64,000 bases of DNA from a virus (Duplodnaviria > Caudoviricetes). Below the pieces are notes generated by a model that was not told the DNA's origin, ran no database searches, and saw only the letters and a program-made list of their open reading frames with translations. The position numbers were made by a program, and so were the translations under genes. Positions 1 to 26,374 of the stretch are shown here, one piece after another; the first letter of the stretch is position 1, and each line of letters begins with the position of its first letter. The stretch covers positions 29,272 through 93,271 of the IMG/VR virus record IMGVR_UViG_3300033066_000581; one strand, 5' to 3'.

Positions 1-79
1 CACCTACAGCCCACCACCAACCCTTGATGCCGTTGGCCTCGGCATCCTCACGATATTCAATTCTCTCTAGGAAGTTCAT
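1..79 (-). CDS. 5' part of a CDS running off the window (MNFLERIEYREDAEANGIKGWWWAVG...)
   Basis: ATG at 79 overlaps the TGA of the upstream gene (ATGA); frame is open to the window edge. Confidence 0.6.
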   Translation of the reverse strand, partial: MNFLERIEYREDAEANGIKGWWWAVG

Positions 80-663
80 TCTGATCCTTTTCTCACATCA
101 TCGTAAAGTTCCTTGGCGTGTTGATCTGACACGTGGCCAGGGACGCCTTTTCGGAACGACTTAAAATCACCGGACTTGGCATGGTCACGCATCTTGGATG
201 CTGACATGCCGGCAGTTCCCTCAGCATCAGGGTCTCTGTGCCCAGCAGACACGACCTTGATGTGCTTGAAGTTGAACTCCTTGCCGTTGTACTTGTGTAA
301 TAATTTATGCATCTCCTCAACCCTATCTGACCCTGCAACCATGGTCAGATGAGTATACCCTGCTGCGTTGAGCCGCTTTGCGTGGTGGATGAACGACGGG
401 TGTTCTTTGGATGATGCGTGGATATTAGCTCCAGGAAAAAACCGCTTGGCGTGCTTAAGTTTTTGAGCCGCGGTTAACGGGTTCTTTTTAGCATCTTGGG
501 TATGTGAAACTACGATCTCATGATCGGCATGTTGTTTCTTGGCTTCGGACTTCACCTTCTCCACAAGCTTTTCATGCCCAGTAGTTGGGGGATTCATCCG
601 GCCAAATGCGAATACAACGTGCTTGTCGGTTGACTCCGCAATGAATGTGGTGAAAGTCTTCAT
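76..663 (-). CDS. Cytidyltransferase-like (HxGH) nucleotidyltransferase, probable internal head protein
   Basis: FGRMNPPTTGH (HIGH-like) and MSASKMR (KMSKS-like) motifs; N-terminus MKTFTTFIAE resembles the T4 capsid-targeting sequence. Confidence 0.85.
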   Translation of the reverse strand: MKTFTTFIAESTDKHVVFAFGRMNPPTTGHEKLVEKVKSEAKKQHADHEIVVSHTQDAKKNPLTAAQKLKHAKRFFPGANIHASSKEHPSFIHHAKRLNAAGYTHLTMVAGSDRVEEMHKLLHKYNGKEFNFKHIKVVSAGHRDPDAEGTAGMSASKMRDHAKSGDFKSFRKGVPGHVSDQHAKELYDDVRKGSE

Positions 664-665
664 GG

Positions 666-1745
666 TTAATCCCTTATGAAATTTTGTCTGGAGAACTCAT
701 GACGATTTACTAGTTTTGTGGGTTGGTTTCCCTTAGAGATTACAAATCCCTCAGGCTTGGCCTTCTTTCCGCGGATACTGTGTTCAAATTCAGAGGTGTG
801 TGACAGCGAATCAACTAATGCATTTTTTGCTTGTTGGAGATGGTGGTGCACCTTCAAGATTTGGTTAAATCCAGAGTGGTGTGCCTCAACGTGGCTAAGA
901 CGCTTTTCAAGCTCGGCACGCTTACGGTCTTTGGCTGCTGCAGTAGAAACCTTATCGATTTCCTTCAGGCCTTTGTTCAGCAAAAATTGGTGATATCCGG
1001 TTGCTGATGGTTTCGATTCGTCTCTGATTGTGGAGTTGATGTACGTTGGAAGCGTTGTGGAATGATCCTCCAAGGCCTTAAAAGTCTTTGAATCCACCTT
1101 ATTTCCATGGAACTTAGCAGCCATGAGATTCTTCTTGAATTTATTCTCCAACCTATCTGGCATCTTGTGCGATGACAGATCTAAATCTGCTGGAATGTTG
1201 TGCACATCATGGCTATCCTTGAAATTGCCATGATCTACGTTGAAGCCTGCCGACATGTCTTCTAAATCTTTACCGTGATACTTAGTATGGACTACGATAC
1301 CGAGTTTAGCCTTAGCAACCTTTTGCCCTTGCTTAGTTTCCATGGGTGTTGAATATGTAATTGTGTTGGGCTTAAAGTGATACTTACCATCAGATGTGGT
1401 GACGTCATCGTGCGTATACATAAGATCCCCCTGATATACCCCCTTCTTCGGAGCAATCTTGGGTAGATGCTTCAGGGCAGACTGAAGCTTGTATACAAGA
1501 CCTGGCGCATGGCCATGATTCTTCTCAACGTCGTCATCTGTATAGTTGATCTTCGGTGTTTTATTGAATGCAGATTTGGAAGCCACGAAGAACTTACCGG
1601 TTTTTGGGTGGTGGCCAAAAACGACACTTGGCGAATTATGAACTAATGCGGCCGAATCTCCAAGCACTATGAAAAAATTCTCGGCGGCGGTTGTAATATC
1701 ATATGAGGTTTCCGGCTCAGAATGCCGAATGTTTGTGACCTTCAT
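666..1745 (-). CDS. C-terminal half of split KxDG ligase-like (DUF6267-like) protein: 37-aa IntC followed by C-extein
   Basis: YDITT...ENFF...LVHN|S intein blocks F/G end at 1635; extein has QGD and EGFV, resembling nucleotidyltransferase motifs III/IV; ATG at 1745 with AAAGG upstream. Confidence 0.85.
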   Translation of the reverse strand: MKVTNIRHSEPETSYDITTAAENFFIVLGDSAALVHNSPSVVFGHHPKTGKFFVASKSAFNKTPKINYTDDDVEKNHGHAPGLVYKLQSALKHLPKIAPKKGVYQGDLMYTHDDVTTSDGKYHFKPNTITYSTPMETKQGQKVAKAKLGIVVHTKYHGKDLEDMSAGFNVDHGNFKDSHDVHNIPADLDLSSHKMPDRLENKFKKNLMAAKFHGNKVDSKTFKALEDHSTTLPTYINSTIRDESKPSATGYHQFLLNKGLKEIDKVSTAAAKDRKRAELEKRLSHVEAHHSGFNQILKVHHHLQQAKNALVDSLSHTSEFEHSIRGKKAKPEGFVISKGNQPTKLVNRHEFSRQNFIRD

Positions 1746-2415
1746 CAATTAACCTTTCGCGAATATTTGAGCATATCTTTAGGAAAGCGGGGTCATCCGC
1801 ATTGCTGTTGCCTTTTATGGTATTTATATACCTCAAACAAAATACTATATTACTTGGATTTGACAGCTCCTCAGGAGATATGTTGAAATGATAACCATAT
1901 ACTACTGAAATTTTATGATCCACACAACGTTTAAGGTAATCATTCGGGTTTGGGGTATTTAATAATTCATCGATGAATTCAATTCCAGTATAGTAGCAAT
2001 ATTTTGGCTTAACTAGCTTTCTAGTCATTTGCTTTGTGTAAAAATATACTTGCTTTCTATAGTTATTAAGATCTTCTATATAATGCAATTCAGTTTTGGG
2101 TATGGAATTCCAGGCTTTGATTTCAGCCGTTCTAAGAGAAGAATTGTTTTCCACACCGTATTTTGCCAGCATTGTTTTCTTAATACCAGCCTGACGATGA
2201 TCAGATATTGCTTTGGATTTGGCATTATATACACCAGAATCTTTTAGAAACTGTCTTAGTCGGCCTGTTGAAACCCCAAACTGTTTCGATATCGTTGGTA
2301 TATGTTCAGATATTGCCCAAGCCGAAAGCAATTCTTCTTTTTGGTTGGCAAAAACCGCTTTATTCTTTTCTCGTCTATCAATAATTAACTTTTGGTCTGG
2401 GTTTAAATTAGCCAA
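1717..2415 (-). mobile_element. Free-standing HNH-like homing endonuclease between the split-intein halves
   Basis: CYYTG...DHKIS...N...NTIKG bba-Me-like pattern and KYGVEN motif; AT-rich; different frame from the IntC gene. Confidence 0.75.
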
Positions 2416-2451
2416 TTTGAATCCTAATAAGATGGTGGGTTACCAGCAATC

Positions 2452-2970
2452 TTATTTATCAAGTAATGAAATTCCAAATATATCATCACCAATGTTAAGA
2501 TCTTTTGCCTCAATCCATTGCCCAGATGACAACATAACCTGATGATCATCAGTCACTTTGATAATATGTTGTGCATCTAATTCAATTTCAACCCAGGCCT
2601 TATCCCCAAGATACGCCAGCTTATCTAGAACTTGAGTGAATTCTATTTCTCCAGCCTTGTTATACCCCAGAACCTTTAAATTTGAAGACGTAGACCAATT
2701 TTCAAATATCTCTTTAATAGACATAACTCCGTGTGTCTCAGTCAGCAATTCTGTGTTGCCTGAGACACACCCATCCCACTTGGTGCTGATCTTATGCCCA
2801 GTGTCTTCACCTGCCATAGTTTTCTTGGCGTGTTCTAAAGTATTGATTGCATGCTTCAGGCCGGCAGCACCAGCATTAATGGGGTGATCTTCTAAATGCT
2901 CAAGATGTTTAAGCTTAGAAGTCTCAAGGCCGGTGGATTCTGTCAAGTATTCTTTGAATGTCAATGTCAT
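2452..2970 (-). CDS. N-terminal half of split KxDG ligase-like protein: 67-aa extein plus 105-aa IntN
   Basis: STKWDG|CVSGNTELL (block A, Cys at 2769); VTDDHQV (block B TxxH); W-EAKDL-GD then stop. Confidence 0.88.
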   Translation of the reverse strand: MTLTFKEYLTESTGLETSKLKHLEHLEDHPINAGAAGLKHAINTLEHAKKTMAGEDTGHKISTKWDGCVSGNTELLTETHGVMSIKEIFENWSTSSNLKVLGYNKAGEIEFTQVLDKLAYLGDKAWVEIELDAQHIIKVTDDHQVMLSSGQWIEAKDLNIGDDIFGISLLDK

Positions 2971-2989
2971 GATGATATTTATTACCTTA

Positions 2990-4069
2990 TCAATTCTTCC
3001 TGAACCTGTAATCGGCCATAATCATGTTCGGATATGATCCTCCGACTTTATTGCGGAAATTTAGGTTGATCAGCAATTCTGGTGTCTTTATGAAGACGGA
3101 AACTTTCTTGGCAGCACCTGGATTTGGGTATCTAACCACAACATCCTGAATGGTGGTGAAACGTTCAAGCATAGCTGGGGTCATGGGAAAGGAATGAATG
3201 TGGCCACGATCCTTGTGCACCAGATGAAACCCATAGCCGATACCGGTCTTCAAGAATTTCTGAAGTCTACGTTTATCTATCTTGGATGTGACGTTGATAT
3301 CCTCGAACCCGCCCCTAGTTGCCTGTCTTCCGCCATAGGAATTGAACGTGGAACAGAACCTGGCGTTATCCACCCCCACCATATCTAGGAGAATTTTACC
3401 CTGTGGGTTGGTGATAATGCCTTGTTTTATTTCAGCCTGAGGGATCATCTTGGCCACACCGATGTTGAAGAATGTGACAGTCGGGCCAAATTTAAGAGAC
3501 ATATGCACAACACCTTTGTCGTGTATCACGTCGACGTCCGTAACAGTCTTTCCAACATCATGATCATTCAAACTGCCGATATACGGTTGATTGCCGGAAA
3601 CTCCCATAGGTCTTCGTTGATTCAATGCCCCCATCGCCTTAACGTGTAGCCCAGATTTATTTTCCAACCCATATTTTTGGAATAGCCCCATGACAAACCC
3701 GCGATGTTCAATCTTAGGATCCTCAGAGTCGGCGATGTACCGATTGATATCGTCGATCAATTCACCCTCAAAAAGATTTCCACGGTTGTTGGTACCTAGG
3801 TTTCCCCTGGATCCGTTTCCCCAAGCAAAACTTAAGCTCTTGAATTGAGACTTGAGATCTTGAAGCTTGATCGGCCCGTTAAGCTGTCTCAGTACTTTTA
3901 TCTTTTGAGGAGCCTTGGGATCCATAGAAAAAGGTCCCTGCGCTTCTGACGAAGGGACCTTTTTTATAACATACGAATACGCCTTAACCAGATCCTCTGA
4001 GATCTGTGGCTTGGAGGTTTTGATGACGATTACGTCATGGAGGTTTTTCGGAATAAGATTATAAGCCAT
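2990..4069 (-). CDS. Hypothetical protein, PD-(D/E)xK-like nuclease fold suspected
   Basis: 359-aa ORF; GNLFE...TDV...SLK spacing resembles restriction-endonuclease-like active sites. Confidence 0.5.
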   Translation of the reverse strand: MAYNLIPKNLHDVIVIKTSKPQISEDLVKAYSYVIKKVPSSEAQGPFSMDPKAPQKIKVLRQLNGPIKLQDLKSQFKSLSFAWGNGSRGNLGTNNRGNLFEGELIDDINRYIADSEDPKIEHRGFVMGLFQKYGLENKSGLHVKAMGALNQRRPMGVSGNQPYIGSLNDHDVGKTVTDVDVIHDKGVVHMSLKFGPTVTFFNIGVAKMIPQAEIKQGIITNPQGKILLDMVGVDNARFCSTFNSYGGRQATRGGFEDINVTSKIDKRRLQKFLKTGIGYGFHLVHKDRGHIHSFPMTPAMLERFTTIQDVVVRYPNPGAAKKVSVFIKTPELLINLNFRNKVGGSYPNMIMADYRFRKN

Positions 4070-4083
4070 TCATTATTTATGGC

Positions 4084-4491
4084 TTATAGGTTCTCCCATG
4101 TTTGTTCATCGGTAGTATAAACGACGTCACAGATGCCGAATGTGGCTAGAGCCCTCTGACAGCCGAGGCACGGCTTGGCCATGCCCATCATCATTGAATG
4201 ATCATGTGTGGACACCTTCTTGGCCCGGGCGATATAGATGGTCGCCTTCTGAAGTTCGTCCGGATGATCGAAATACTTGAGAGCGTTCAGGATCGCATCA
4301 GTCTCAGCGTGGAGATATATCGATTGTTCATTCTTGCCGTACTTGGCTGCGAATGGGTGGCTCTTGTTCTTGTTGACCCCGTACCGAATGATCTTATCAC
4401 GAACAGCGATAAGCGCTGCAACCCTGGCGTTTCCAACCGGTTGCAGCGCTTCAGCTAGTTCGTAGGTCTGGCTCTTTAGATAGTCTGACAT
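4084..4491 (-). CDS. Zinc-dependent cytidine/CMP deaminase-fold protein
   Basis: HAE and PCLGC motifs. Confidence 0.85.
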   Translation of the reverse strand: MSDYLKSQTYELAEALQPVGNARVAALIAVRDKIIRYGVNKNKSHPFAAKYGKNEQSIYLHAETDAILNALKYFDHPDELQKATIYIARAKKVSTHDHSMMMGMAKPCLGCQRALATFGICDVVYTTDEQTWENL

Positions 4492-4869
4492 CTACTTGGT
4501 CAGTTCATAGACGGCATTATGGAAGCCGTAGCGATAGGAAGGCCGCTTCCCGTTCAGAAGTTCCAGGCCACCGTTCTTGCCGATGACGATATGACGATAG
4601 TTACGGCAGAAAGCTTCGGCGAGAGTGTCCTCATCGCCGACCATACCAACTTCAATGATCATATAGACCGGGGCGGCATCACCATACTGATACGCCTCGA
4701 ACTTCTTCAGCTCATAAGCTTTGAAGCCGTGCTTTTGACGATACTCGGTGTTGAGAAGGGTTTGCTTGATCCGTTCGATCCGAGCGGTCTGCTTAGCGTT
4801 GCCGGTCGACCAGTGCTTCCTGGCTTCCATTTCGGCGAGGATATCGTCAACGGTTTGGTCATTGCTCAT
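4492..4869 (-). CDS. Hypothetical protein (early, leaderless)
   Basis: 125-aa ORF, ATG 6 nt after a TATGAT box. Confidence 0.75.
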   Translation of the reverse strand: MSNDQTVDDILAEMEARKHWSTGNAKQTARIERIKQTLLNTEYRQKHGFKAYELKKFEAYQYGDAAPVYMIIEVGMVGDEDTLAEAFCRNYRHIVIGKNGGLELLNGKRPSYRYGFHNAVYELTK

Positions 4870-4875
4870 ATTCTT

Positions 4876-4904
4876 ATCATATCACAGTGGCCAATTAAGT
4901 ACAC
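4876..4904 (-). promoter_or_regulatory. Early promoter GTGTAC-N17-TATGAT
   Basis: One of 11 copies of this motif. Confidence 0.85.
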
Positions 4905-4910
4905 AGCTAA

Positions 4911-5126
4911 TTACGGTGCCCGCGAAAATTCTCCACAGTACCAGAAACTGTTAACGATGGGCCATTCTGTTCTTCCAGACGTATATGTGCCGGCATTCAT
5001 GCCGTTAGATTTGACGTTTCCGATCACGGTTGGCGGGTATCTACGACACTGATATTGATCTTCTCCCAAGATATACACCTTGGAATGTCTACAATTCAGA
5101 CAATTTGAAATCGGAATACTCATCAT
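4911..5126 (-). CDS. Small Cys-containing hypothetical protein
   Basis: CxxC...CRRYPP...WP...WYCGEF pattern; ATG overlaps the upstream stop. Confidence 0.65.
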   Translation of the reverse strand: MMSIPISNCLNCRHSKVYILGEDQYQCRRYPPTVIGNVKSNGMNAGTYTSGRTEWPIVNSFWYCGEFSRAP

Positions 5127-5299
5127 CCACCACTCAAGAAAATGCCGACGGCGTACAAACACGCACCCAAAGCAAAGCATATCCATGCCCATGGGATCTC
5201 GGCTGGGTGTCTAGTCCTGCCCCTAACTCCCATTGGCCCGATCAAAATCGTGCACGCAGCCCACAAACATGTGGCCAGGAAGCCTATTGCGCTGATCAT
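5123..5299 (-). CDS. 58-aa putative two-TM membrane protein (not in the ORF track)
   Basis: MISAIGFLATCLWAACTILIG...WICFALGACLYAVGIFLSGG; fills the gap exactly between its neighbours. Confidence 0.65.
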   Translation of the reverse strand: MISAIGFLATCLWAACTILIGPMGVRGRTRHPAEIPWAWICFALGACLYAVGIFLSGG

Positions 5300-5300
5300 C

Positions 5301-6332
5301 CTATTCTCCGTTCTTTAAGAGCCACGCGTTAGAAATCACCTTGAAGCTCTTGTTGGGGTCGTCAAGATTCTTGAAGACCACACCTTCACGTAGCTTGGCA
5401 TTGATAGAAGGACCATCAGCATACTCCAGAGCTTCTTCCATAGTCATATCAAAGGCCAGGCCAATATCAATCACTGGCGCATGCTTTAATTCTAGAAGTT
5501 CGATGATAAGACGCCGATCAAATGCATTTACATATCCACGAGATTCATCGAAGATATCAAAGACGAAGAACTCAAGCTCCTTCAGGCCTTCCTTGTTGCC
5601 TTGGACACCAGGACCCATCAGTTCGCCTTGGATAGCGACGTTGTCATAACCGTTCTCGATCATCATTTCTTCGATCTTAAGGGCCCTGGCCACGCGCCAG
5701 AAGGAATTATCCTCAGTCTCGATCAGGTCAAGGTTCCGTGAACAAACACCAAACCGGCCTTCATGTCGGTAAACGGTCATCGATGAACCATCAAGCTTCA
5801 TCGTCACCTCGTAGTAGCCATGGAGCTTGTCGACATCCAGGTTCTGGATACGTTCTTGGTCCGTCTTCCGAAGGAATGACGGGAAGTTGCCACGGACCTT
5901 GCCAGCAAGATTGGCAGGAATCACGGGTTCCCACTTCTCGACACCACAAATCTCGGTCAGGTCCTCTTCAGCCTCGTAGGCCCGAAGCACCCATTCAAAG
6001 AAAGCTACCTCTTTAGACTCAGCAGCGAAAACGTTGATCGGATGAAGCGCCAAGCCTTGTGAAAGCTGGCCGCGGAGCTTGATCGTTTTGATCCGAGCGC
6101 CTTCCTTGCCGTTCCATGTGATCTTGTTCTTCACCAGGAATTTGAACGGTTCCTGATCGACTGGCACGAAGGAGTCGATCTCGAAATAGACGCAGATGTC
6201 ACCTTCTTGGAATTCATTCTTCTTAACAACCGCTTGCCATCCACCGATCTTGGCTAGTTCGATGGCATCAGCGCCTTCGATAGGAAGGATCTCGTCAATA
6301 CGACGAAGGGTAACTAGTTTACGTTCTGACAT
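5301..6332 (-). CDS. ATP-dependent RNA ligase, DRB0094/Rnl5-like
   Basis: N-terminal PIEGADAIE domain; KTDQERIQN, KLDGSS (motif I), QGE, FDI, EGVVFK, SFKVIS. Confidence 0.9.
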   Translation of the reverse strand: MSERKLVTLRRIDEILPIEGADAIELAKIGGWQAVVKKNEFQEGDICVYFEIDSFVPVDQEPFKFLVKNKITWNGKEGARIKTIKLRGQLSQGLALHPINVFAAESKEVAFFEWVLRAYEAEEDLTEICGVEKWEPVIPANLAGKVRGNFPSFLRKTDQERIQNLDVDKLHGYYEVTMKLDGSSMTVYRHEGRFGVCSRNLDLIETEDNSFWRVARALKIEEMMIENGYDNVAIQGELMGPGVQGNKEGLKELEFFVFDIFDESRGYVNAFDRRLIIELLELKHAPVIDIGLAFDMTMEEALEYADGPSINAKLREGVVFKNLDDPNKSFKVISNAWLLKNGE

Positions 6333-6338
6333 ATTTCC

Positions 6339-6683
6339 TCAGGCAGCTAGACGGTTAAGAGTTTCAGTGTTCGCTTGCATCTGGGCGATCACACAGGCGG
6401 AAGGTGTTGCATCTGACACGAACGGAACGGTATAATACAGGTCCACTCGTTCATCATCAACCACATACATTCGTTGGAACATAAGGACGTCACCGGTGCA
6501 GTTGACGAACTCGATATCCATGATGGTTTTGAGTTCAGCTCGAGTCAGAGCCCCATCGATAATTAGCGTCACCTCGAAGGCCTTTGCATCAAGCCGAAGT
6601 GGATCGTCACATGTTGGGTTGAGTAGATTTAGGGAAAGGGCTTCGGCCGGAGTGACGTCCGTAAGCCAGTAACGACGTTGCAT
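6339..6683 (-). CDS. Hypothetical protein
   Basis: ATG at 6683 just after the kinase stop; the longer ORF-track start overlaps the kinase. Confidence 0.6.
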   Translation of the reverse strand: MQRRYWLTDVTPAEALSLNLLNPTCDDPLRLDAKAFEVTLIIDGALTRAELKTIMDIEFVNCTGDVLMFQRMYVVDDERVDLYYTVPFVSDATPSACVIAQMQANTETLNRLAA

Positions 6684-25239: not shown

Positions 25240-26374
25240 ACGTAATAATCGATTTTCAATATTGACGCCTGATGGCTGGTCTGATTTTTCTGGGCTACAA
25301 AAGACCACTAAGCAACTTTCATATGTTGTAAAAACCAATGAATCTTCGCTTATTTGTAGTCAAAAACACCAATTATCGACGACGACTGGGTGGAAATTAG
25401 CAAAGGACTTGGTCATTGGTGATTTTGTTTATGGACAAGATAGTATTCAAGAAGTAAAATCTATAGATTTGGTTCATGGTAATAATGAATTCTATGAATG
25501 CATCGATGTAGAAAAGCAAAAACAATATTACACCAACGGATTACTATCACACAACTGCGAGTTCCTAGGCAGCTCGATGACTCTGATCAGCGCCGTTGTG
25601 TTAAGACGACTAGTTCACAGGAACCCGGTCGGGAACTTCAACACCATCAAGATCTACAAAGAGCCAGACCCAGCCGGAACCTATATAATTGTCGCTGACG
25701 TGGCCAGAGGTGTTGGCGGTGACTATTCAGCCTTCGTGGTCTTTGACGTAACCAAGTTCCCGTACCAGCAGGTGGCAGTCTATCGAAGTAACCTGGTCTC
25801 ACCGCTGATCTTCCCCAACTTCATCTTTTCTGCGGCCAAGCATTACAACAATGCACTGGTTCTGATCGAGACCAACGATATTGGTGGTCAGGTGGCAGAT
25901 ATCCTCCATTACGACCTGGAATACGAGGGAGTTATTTCATCAACTAACTCAGGAAGAGATGGACAGGTAGTAGGCGGTGGGTTCTCTGGTGGATTTCACT
26001 TTGGGGTTAGGACAACAAAGTCAGTCAAGCGAATCGGGTGTGCCAACTTCAAATCGTTGGTCGAAGGCGATCAGCTTATCATTAACGACTACCAAACCAT
26101 CTACGAGATGTCCAGATTTTCCCAGAAGGGCCAATCATACGAAGCCGAGGAAGGCCATGATGATATGGTTATGTGTTGTGTTCTGTTCTCATGGTTAACA
26201 AATCAGGCGTATTTCAAGGCTATTACTGAGAATGACGTCAGATTGTCGTTGTATGAGAAGAACGTCCAAATGATTGAAGAAGAGATGATTCCGTTTGGAA
26301 TATTCGATGACGGTAATGAGCCGGCGGAGAACATTGAACCTATGCCTGTTTATAAAGATGAATTCTCTTGGTGA
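25232..26374 (+). CDS. 17: Terminase large subunit C-half: 108-aa IntC plus nuclease domain
   Basis: LTPDGW...YYTNGLLSHN|CEFLGS; DVARG.GGDYSAF, E.ND, HDD.VM. Confidence 0.93.
   Translation: MYRRNNRFSILTPDGWSDFSGLQKTTKQLSYVVKTNESSLICSQKHQLSTTTGWKLAKDLVIGDFVYGQDSIQEVKSIDLVHGNNEFYECIDVEKQKQYYTNGLLSHNCEFLGSSMTLISAVVLRRLVHRNPVGNFNTIKIYKEPDPAGTYIIVADVARGVGGDYSAFVVFDVTKFPYQQVAVYRSNLVSPLIFPNFIFSAAKHYNNALVLIETNDIGGQVADILHYDLEYEGVISSTNSGRDGQVVGGGFSGGFHFGVRTTKSVKRIGCANFKSLVEGDQLIINDYQTIYEMSRFSQKGQSYEAEEGHDDMVMCCVLFSWLTNQAYFKAITENDVRLSLYEKNVQMIEEEMIPFGIFDDGNEPAENIEPMPVYKDEFSW

Follow-up and report, generated by a model that had tools for sequence, protein, structure and literature searches.

The DNA considered here, from an uncultured T4-like phage, is a 64-kb window of the 93-kb IMG/VR virus record IMGVR_UViG_3300033066_000581, and the gene in question is a member of the DUF6267 family that is encoded in two separate pieces. 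All coordinates refer to this window, and all parts of the divided gene lie on the minus strand. Between positions 666 and 2970, three open reading frames (ORFs) follow one another: an N-terminal half of the DUF6267 gene, a free-standing endonuclease ORF of the HNH type and a C-terminal half of the DUF6267 gene. This order, on one strand and with separate starts and stops for each ORF, is that of a fractured gene.

The N-half gene (2970-2452) encodes 172 amino acids, made up of a 67-residue N-extein (2770-2970) and a 105-residue N-terminal intein fragment (IntN; 2452-2769, including its TAA stop codon). The N-extein, which is matched by Pfam DUF6267, starts with MTLTFKEYLTES, a leader-like N terminus, and ends in HKISTKWDG, containing ligase motif I (KxDG). 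The frame reads through GEDTGHKISTKWDG into CVSGNTELLTETHGV, continues through IKVTDDHQVML and stops after DDIFGISLLDK; intein block A (CVSGNTELL) begins at Cys1, and block B is T73-D-D-H76 within IKVTDDH. A 36-nt spacer (2416-2451), read from the sequence, contains a second in-frame stop codon (TAA) and an AGGA Shine-Dalgarno-like motif located 6 nt ahead of the TTG start codon of the endonuclease gene (1717-2415; 232 amino acids), which encodes a helix-turn-helix (HTH) and an HNH domain. IntN and the HNH ORF share a reading frame and are separated by the two stop codons. The C-half gene (1745-666; 359 amino acids, ATG at 1745) begins with a 37-residue C-terminal intein fragment (IntC; 1635-1745), MKVTNIRHSEPETSYDITTAAENFFIVLGDSAALVHN (MKVTNIRH...SAALVHN), in which YDITT..NFF is block F and LVHN is block G. 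The first 29 nt of IntC overlap the 3' end of the HNH ORF in a different reading frame. The remaining 322 residues form the C-extein (666-1634, including the stop codon), also matched by Pfam DUF6267, with Ser+1 as its first residue (SPSVVFGHHP...) and with candidate ligase motifs III, IIIa, IV (PEGFV) and V (TKLVNR). The extein/intein boundaries (67 plus 105 and 37 plus 322 residues) were set by a script. Splicing of the two halves is predicted to give a 389-residue product with the junction KWDG-SPSVVFG. A preliminary description of the window had proposed the two halves with their coordinates, a 105-residue IntN, a 37-residue IntC, the HN/S junction and an HNH-like ORF between the halves, and every one of these elements is present as it was described.

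The divided gene and its intein

The two halves correspond to a single protein family. The N-half covers positions 2-48 of the Pfam DUF6267 profile (PF19782; E 1.8e-10) and the C-half covers positions 48-372 (E 2.1e-82), which places the break at one position of the profile; PHROG 455 agrees with this division into two halves. When the exteins are joined, the resulting 389 residues, close to the length expected in the preliminary description, align without gaps and with 87.1% identity to the 389-residue intein-free metagenomic homolog P0006, which reads STKWDGSPSIVFG across the insertion site (STKWDG-SPSIVFG) and is contiguous across KWDG/SP. The proteins of cyanophages P-HM2 and P-RSM6 are likewise uninterrupted at this site (TTKWDGAPA). 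Since intein-free relatives also carry KWDG-SPS, the Ser+1 residue is native to the extein clade and was not brought in by the intein. Apparent tblastn matches in P-HM2 and ACG-2014h that seemed to cover IntC (query 1-357) were discarded, as translation gave an ordinary intein-free gene and the IntC portion was a spurious extension of the alignment. A megablast search with window positions 1-6400 against GenBank phages gave no match. The 93-kb record has a single copy of DUF6267, and the HNH gene was likewise found there only once.

In a different sample, a second IMG/VR contig matches window positions 1-5263 at 99.3% identity with no insertions or deletions, and the fractured gene is therefore not an assembly artifact. 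The two strains differ at six positions within the two halves, all of them synonymous, and the cassette itself is identical. As a separate observation, 19 of the 37 differences between the strains cluster at positions 4774-4850, in the first ~30 codons of the ORF at 4869-4492, where five codons are changed nonsynonymously; the cluster marks a local patch that is hypervariable or recombined.

A different account of the interruption would be that it is removed at the RNA level, as a group I intron with the HNH gene inside it, or that a contiguous intein has been broken up by an assembly or frameshift artifact. HNH genes are frequent in phage group I introns, and the HNH ORF does share the frame of IntN at a distance of two stop codons. 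However, an Rfam scan of window positions 400-3300 with E values up to 1 found no group I intron or other relevant match, and in-frame intein blocks are present on either side of the interruption. The IntC sequence is in another frame than the HNH ORF and overlaps it. Independent assemblies from many samples repeat this layout of ORFs set apart by stop codons, and the frame relations differ among them. We regard these accounts as extremely improbable.

The sequence flanking the HNH gene has the features of a naturally split class-1 intein, for which trans-splicing is predicted. IntN matches Pfam Intein_splicing (E 9.6e-6), and among proteins of known structure it is closest to the NrdJ-1 split intein (8ubs; residues 67-164, E 2.9e-7, ~28% identity over ~98 residues), with DnaE inteins (E ~1e-3) next among the PDB sequence matches; a PDB sequence search with IntC gave no match. 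The class-1 residue set is complete, with Cys1 directly after KWDG, T73-x-x-H76, YDITT..NFF...LVHN and Ser+1. The split point is at the canonical position of endonuclease insertion, and fragments of 105 and 37 amino acids have the sizes of natural split-intein fragments. The NrdJ-1 intein presumably also has an IntN of ~105 residues with Cys1 and Ser+1.

The residues required for splicing are conserved well beyond this locus. Across 91 IntN sequences (the window and 90 others, clustered at 50% identity), Cys1 and T73 are each found in 100% and H76 in 98%; blocks F and G, the His-Asn pair and Ser+1 are common to all 14 IntC sequences compared (the window, ten split and three contiguous). Judged from this conservation, the splicing residues appear to be under selection. 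The proposed sequence of events begins with the production of three proteins from the locus, after which the N-half and C-half would associate through their intein fragments. Cys1 would undergo an N-S acyl shift, Ser+1 would attack the resulting thioester, and cyclization of the terminal Asn37 of IntC would release the intein. A final O-N shift would give the intact 389-residue enzyme reading ...STKWDG-SPSVVFG....

It is also conceivable that the intein halves no longer splice and have become a noncovalent dimerization module that holds the enzyme fragments together. Split enzymes of T4-like phages that work without covalent rejoining are known; one example, as cited in PMC2677866, is NrdA in phage Aeh1, whose gene is divided by an HNH gene. 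Mere association, however, requires neither Cys1 nor the block B Thr and His, the His-Asn pair or Ser+1, and yet these residues are kept in 98-100% of the 91 N-halves and in the 14 IntC sequences. An unspliced complex would moreover retain 142 extra residues right after the KxDG lysine motif. A purely noncovalent role is thus very unlikely, and trans-splicing is the reading that we carry forward.

The host protein and the endonuclease

DUF6267 is an uncharacterized gene of marine and freshwater T4-like phages, with a homolog in hundreds of cyanophage records. A PDB sequence search with the C-extein matched no solved structure, and a literature search found no paper that mentions DUF6267. An AlphaFold model of the intein-free P0006, built with 52 homologs, has a predicted local distance difference test score (pLDDT) of 90.5 and a predicted template modeling score of 0.86. 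In an exhaustive structural comparison with VIA-align, the top matches of this model are RNA ligases: Naegleria NgrRnl (Z 9.2), TbREL1 (8.3), T4 Rnl2 (7.7) and then Trl1 and T4 Rnl1. Many ATP-dependent DNA ligases come after the RNA ligases, and ligases make up ~24 of the first 30 rows (Z 9.2-5.6). The best Foldseek rows for the same model are DNA ligases.

The column conservation points in the same direction. The motif I residues K64, D66 and G67 are invariant in 52 DUF6267 sequences, and KxDG is found in every N-half as well. Further invariant columns include D137 in QGDLMY (candidate motif III), F154, P156 and N157 (candidate motif IIIa), E362 and G363 in PEGFV (candidate motif IV) and K374 and R378 in TKLVNR (candidate motif V); these four candidates were picked by inspection of invariant columns and not by residue-level superposition. 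Together with motif I they stand in the canonical ligase order, and a helical insertion of ~120 residues (227-347 in the P0006 model) separates motifs IIIa and IV. The ATP-dependent ligases that match DUF6267 best (5cot, 1xdn, 1s68/2hvq, Trl1, T4 Rnl1 and archaeal and human DNA ligases; Z 9.2-6 over 140-200 residues) share the KxDG motif with it, and its candidate motifs III, IIIa, IV and V follow one another in the canonical order. Unlike them, DUF6267 has no detectable sequence similarity to these enzymes, carries the helical insertion and has neither an OB nor any other known C-terminal domain. Based on the modeled fold and the conserved columns, it is likely that DUF6267 is a divergent covalent nucleotidyltransferase, probably a ligase, and the term ligase-like in the preliminary description is supported by the model.

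The intein lies directly after the Gly of KxDG, three residues past the candidate catalytic Lys, which fits the usual preference of inteins for conserved motifs. The preliminary description had gone further and taken the insertion point as the mark of KWDG as the catalytic motif. The site agrees with the intein preference, but it is conservation and fold, not the position of the intein, that identify KxDG as the candidate catalytic motif.

The middle gene is, by its modeled structure, an HTH-HNH endonuclease, and its activity is a prediction. Its sole sequence-model match is to phrog_1035, endonuclease VII (E 2e-5). Alignment with the 21 homologs found (22 sequences in all) shows D166, H167, K168, N189, N198 and K201 to be invariant, corresponding to an H-N-N form of the HNH motif; distant homologs bear DUF7487 repeats. 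In the AlphaFold model (pLDDT 88), the C-terminal domain (approximately residues 107-222) has as its best VIA-align match the Gme HNH nicking endonuclease 4h9d (Z 8.4, 92 of 97 residues), followed by phage GVE2 HNH, PacI, EcoKMcrA and T5 SciA. Foldseek agrees weakly, giving 4h9d a probability of 0.94 but an E value of 0.2. The N-terminal domain (approximately residues 6-63) matches the helix-turn-helix DNA-binding domains of GcrA, Tc3 transposase and Hin. The HNH protein presumably cuts intein-free alleles in co-infecting phages, and recombinational repair of the cut would spread the cassette.

Breadth of the family and known systems

A word-based homolog search with the N-half returned the query alone. 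An exhaustive HMMER search of 1.84 billion representatives returned 397 hits, and among the best 149 of these, which were examined, 90 are natural N-halves (clusters at 50% identity) that have KxDG-Cys and stop after 85-140 residues (median 102). Ten C-halves starting with an IntC of ~37 residues were present among the best 120 C-half homologs, some of them fused to a C-terminal cytidylyltransferase domain. Contiguous mini-inteins, an intermediate form, occur at the same site in P0149, P0201 and P0219. A scan of IMG/VR and of metagenomes with a degenerate DNA pattern covering the IntC/extein junction identified one further IMG/VR locus (L006) and nine true metagenome loci, one of which (L032) is a duplicate of L006. 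Among the pattern matches, one of three in IMG/VR (L007) and ~18 of 29 in metagenomes had no similarity to DUF6267 and were rejected as chance hits.

The order of N-half, homologous HNH ORF and C-half is found in ten further loci (L006/L032, L008, L012, L014, L019, L022, L026, L031 and L033). Among the loci with enough upstream sequence for the gene order to be judged, every one has the N-half, the HNH ORF and the C-half in succession, then a cytidylyltransferase gene where the sequence continues, and in each the 3' end of the HNH ORF overlaps the start of IntC. Relative to the window, the N-halves are only ~40% identical, the full-length C-halves 47-51% and the HNH ORF 32-35%; with the layout the same at such low identity, the arrangement is therefore old and maintained. 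A conserved read-through fusion of IntN and the HNH ORF was dismissed, as the frame relation of the two varies among loci.

This maintenance bears on the possibility that invasion by the cassette destroyed DUF6267 and that the pieces are decaying remnants of a dead gene. Selfish elements can inactivate genes, and the close relatives P0006, P0007 and P0008 have an intact intein-free gene. Against decay, all three ORFs are intact both here and in the ten other loci, which have diverged to 32-50% identity, and the strain differences in the halves comprise six synonymous and no nonsynonymous changes. The catalytic residues of both extein and intein are kept, and the partner cytidylyltransferase gene is still present downstream. 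We therefore give a dead gene little credence, no more than a purely noncovalent association of the halves.

A FastTree phylogeny was made from 128 C-exteins (109 intein-free, 16 split and three contiguous), a sample that takes in all usable sequences from the top 120 hits and is biased toward relatives of the window. The split state requires at least eight changes on this tree, six of which are forced by well-supported branches, and the window itself falls within a group of three intein-free sequences (support 98-99). The patchy distribution is compatible with gain by homing on several occasions, with precise loss or with both. In a search for the homing site, DNA of the closest intein-free allele, P0006, was not found in IMG/VR, where the nearest empty alleles are only ~47% identical.

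The preliminary description had presented the pair as a new split intein with Ser+1, possibly orthogonal and useful as a tool. The pair and its Ser+1 are real, but the pair is not singular: judged by sequence, it belongs to a large and diverse metagenomic family of at least 90 N-half clusters at 50% identity, and Ser+1, as described above, comes from the extein clade. Orthogonality and use as a tool are unproven, because the intein is a relative of the characterized NrdJ-1 split intein.

Several observations weigh against the interpretation of the locus as a trans-splicing fractured gene. The virus record is only ~52% complete, and an intact second copy of DUF6267 may lie elsewhere. The Intein_splicing match scores 25.9 bits, below the gathering threshold of 35.8, because the N half of the domain alone is present. 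The net charge is -10 for IntN and -3 for IntC, both acidic, and no overall charge complementarity of the DnaE type is apparent. The structural matches to ligases are middling, with Z values of 9.2 at most and a Foldseek E value of 0.016 at best (the best rows span 0.016-0.1). The HNH ORF starts with TTG and has no Pfam match, HNH models included, even at E values up to 10. Taking these points into account, we estimate at approximately 85% the probability that this is a fractured DUF6267 gene: a ligase-like nucleotidyltransferase that is cut right after K-W-D-G by a split class-1 intein with an HTH-HNH homing endonuclease gene and is predicted to be restored by trans-splicing.

Fractured genes of this kind were described by Dassa, London, Stoddard, Schueler-Furman and Pietrokovski in 2009 (PMC2677866), with the hosts gp41, IMPDH, DnaE, NrdA, NrdJ, DNA ligase, terminase and one unknown. 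The unknown host is next to nrdB, and the DNA ligase is a genuine ligase of the Felix 01 type. In that study, the endonucleases are GIY-YIG or Vsr-like, and HNH types were considered able in principle to fracture genes (PMC2677866). The DUF6267 locus has the identical layout, the phage or environmental origin and the split at the canonical endonuclease-insertion position, but its host is outside the eight listed and its endonuclease is of the HTH-HNH and not the GIY-YIG or Vsr-like type. By sequence, the locus can be assigned to the fractured-gene class of Dassa et al., with a new host gene and an HNH-type endonuclease. NrdJ-1 (8ubs, 9omb), the closest solved relative of IntN, differs in extein and insertion site, and the sequences are strongly diverged.

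Two other systems resemble parts of the arrangement. According to the account cited in PMC2677866, the HNH gene mobE divides nrdA in phage Aeh1 (Edgell and co-workers) with no intein, and the fragments assemble noncovalently. As far as that account goes, nrdA is also an enzyme gene of a T4-like phage divided by a free-standing HNH homing endonuclease gene, in contrast to the DUF6267 locus, where intein halves flank the HNH gene. Actinobacteriophage inteins carry endonuclease VII-like homing endonucleases out of frame, which was interpreted as a free-standing endonuclease gene invading an intein; one split intein was reported there, in a Pol-beta-type nucleotidyltransferase (bioRxiv 10.1101/2025.01.02.630785). 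These inteins share with the DUF6267 cassette an endonuclease VII/HNH-like ORF within the intein in a separate frame. Unlike the DUF6267 intein, they are contiguous and in other hosts, the sole split case being in the unrelated Pol-beta-type family. Our literature searches (on DUF6267, on fractured genes and split inteins, and on HNH and split inteins) found no paper on DUF6267 as an intein host and none describing this intein family; the preliminary description likewise knew of no fractured gene in this host family.

The same virus record contains a second fractured gene outside the window, at approximately 13.5-17.0 kb (locus L057, minus strand; ORFs 3981-2353, 2287-1592 and 1602-529 of that locus). 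Its N-half is a ribonucleotide reductase NrdA of 542 amino acids that ends in an IntN (MTNL|CLTGDSKLD..., block B TPEH), its middle ORF encodes a 231-residue GIY-YIG endonuclease, and its C-half of 357 amino acids starts with the IntC MGIKITKLSYREDVYDITVEDNHNFFANGILVHN followed by CVEICL. An nrdB-like ORF lies downstream. The IntN sequences of NrdA and DUF6267 are only 26% identical. This classic NrdA/GIY-YIG arrangement is a precedent, in the same genome, for the interpretation of the DUF6267 locus. Elsewhere in the window, weak Pfam Intein_splicing matches (E 0.012 and 0.064) at 25307-25555 (plus strand), in a 386-residue ORF, may be a Hint-like segment or may have arisen by chance.

Neighboring genes and implications

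Directly downstream of the C-half is a cytidylyltransferase-like gene (76-663, minus strand; phrog_3041, E 9e-69; Pfam CTP_transf_like) that starts with MKTFTTFIAES. A cytidylyltransferase-like domain of the HxGH type is fused to the DUF6267 C terminus in P0008, P0012, P0033-P0035 and P0039, PHROG 455 models the fusion of DUF6267 and cytidylyltransferase, and the neighboring gene is also present in L006, L012, L031, L032 and L033. The adjacency and the fusion hint at a pathway of two steps for the ligase-like enzyme. A true RNA ligase (5301-6332, minus strand; PHA02142, OB-fold and RNA_ligase domain) with the motif KLDG is encoded 2.3 kb away in the same block of genes, and a dCMP (deoxycytidine monophosphate) deaminase-like gene (4084-4491) is located between the fractured locus and the RNA ligase.

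Among the ORFs of at least 80 amino acids in the 64-kb window, only two start with M-x(1-3)-F-xx-[FY]-[ILV]-x-E: the DUF6267 N-extein (at 2970-2935, minus strand) and the cytidylyltransferase (at 663-631, minus strand). This shared leader motif resembles MKTYQEFIAE, the capsid-targeting sequence of T4. The AlphaFold model is disordered over residues 1-18, and the leader is present on the N-half and not on the C-half. It may be that the DUF6267 enzyme and the cytidylyltransferase are packaged in the virion and injected.

A perfect match to the T4-type late-promoter consensus, TATAAATA, lies within the HNH ORF at 1821-1828 (minus strand), 76 nt upstream of the C-half ATG, and the N-half and the HNH ORF are closely preceded by the variants AATAAATA and GATAAATA. 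With nine matches in the window versus 1.8 expected by chance, the motif is enriched. The same nucleotides encode the conserved R-Y-I-N of the HNH ORF, and L006 reads RYCN where the window reads RYIN, the late-promoter motif thus being absent from L006. From its sequence and position, the motif may be an independent late promoter of the C-half. Because only the N-extein has a leader of the capsid-targeting type, the cytidylyltransferase has a leader of the same kind and the C-half may have its own late promoter, we can envisage a role for the cassette beyond that of a selfish passenger, in which trans-splicing would join a head-targeting leader to the catalytic body and so gate or time the loading of an injected ligase-like enzyme into the virion. 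This role is speculative and unlikely.

For the DUF6267 family, the modeled fold is a functional lead toward a ligase-like covalent nucleotidyltransferase, and the point of intein insertion is its most conserved motif, KxDG. The locus supplies an example of the HNH-type fractured gene that was only predicted in PMC2677866, and it adds a large and naturally diverse family of split inteins at one site. With at least 90 diverged natural pairs at a single site, this family would surpass in size any other natural collection of Cys1/Ser+1 split inteins still undescribed. It is related to the fast-splicing NrdJ-1 and is a possible source of new protein-ligation tools. The coexistence of split, contiguous and intein-free forms at the same site makes DUF6267 a good system for the study of how inteins become split and how free-standing endonucleases colonize them.

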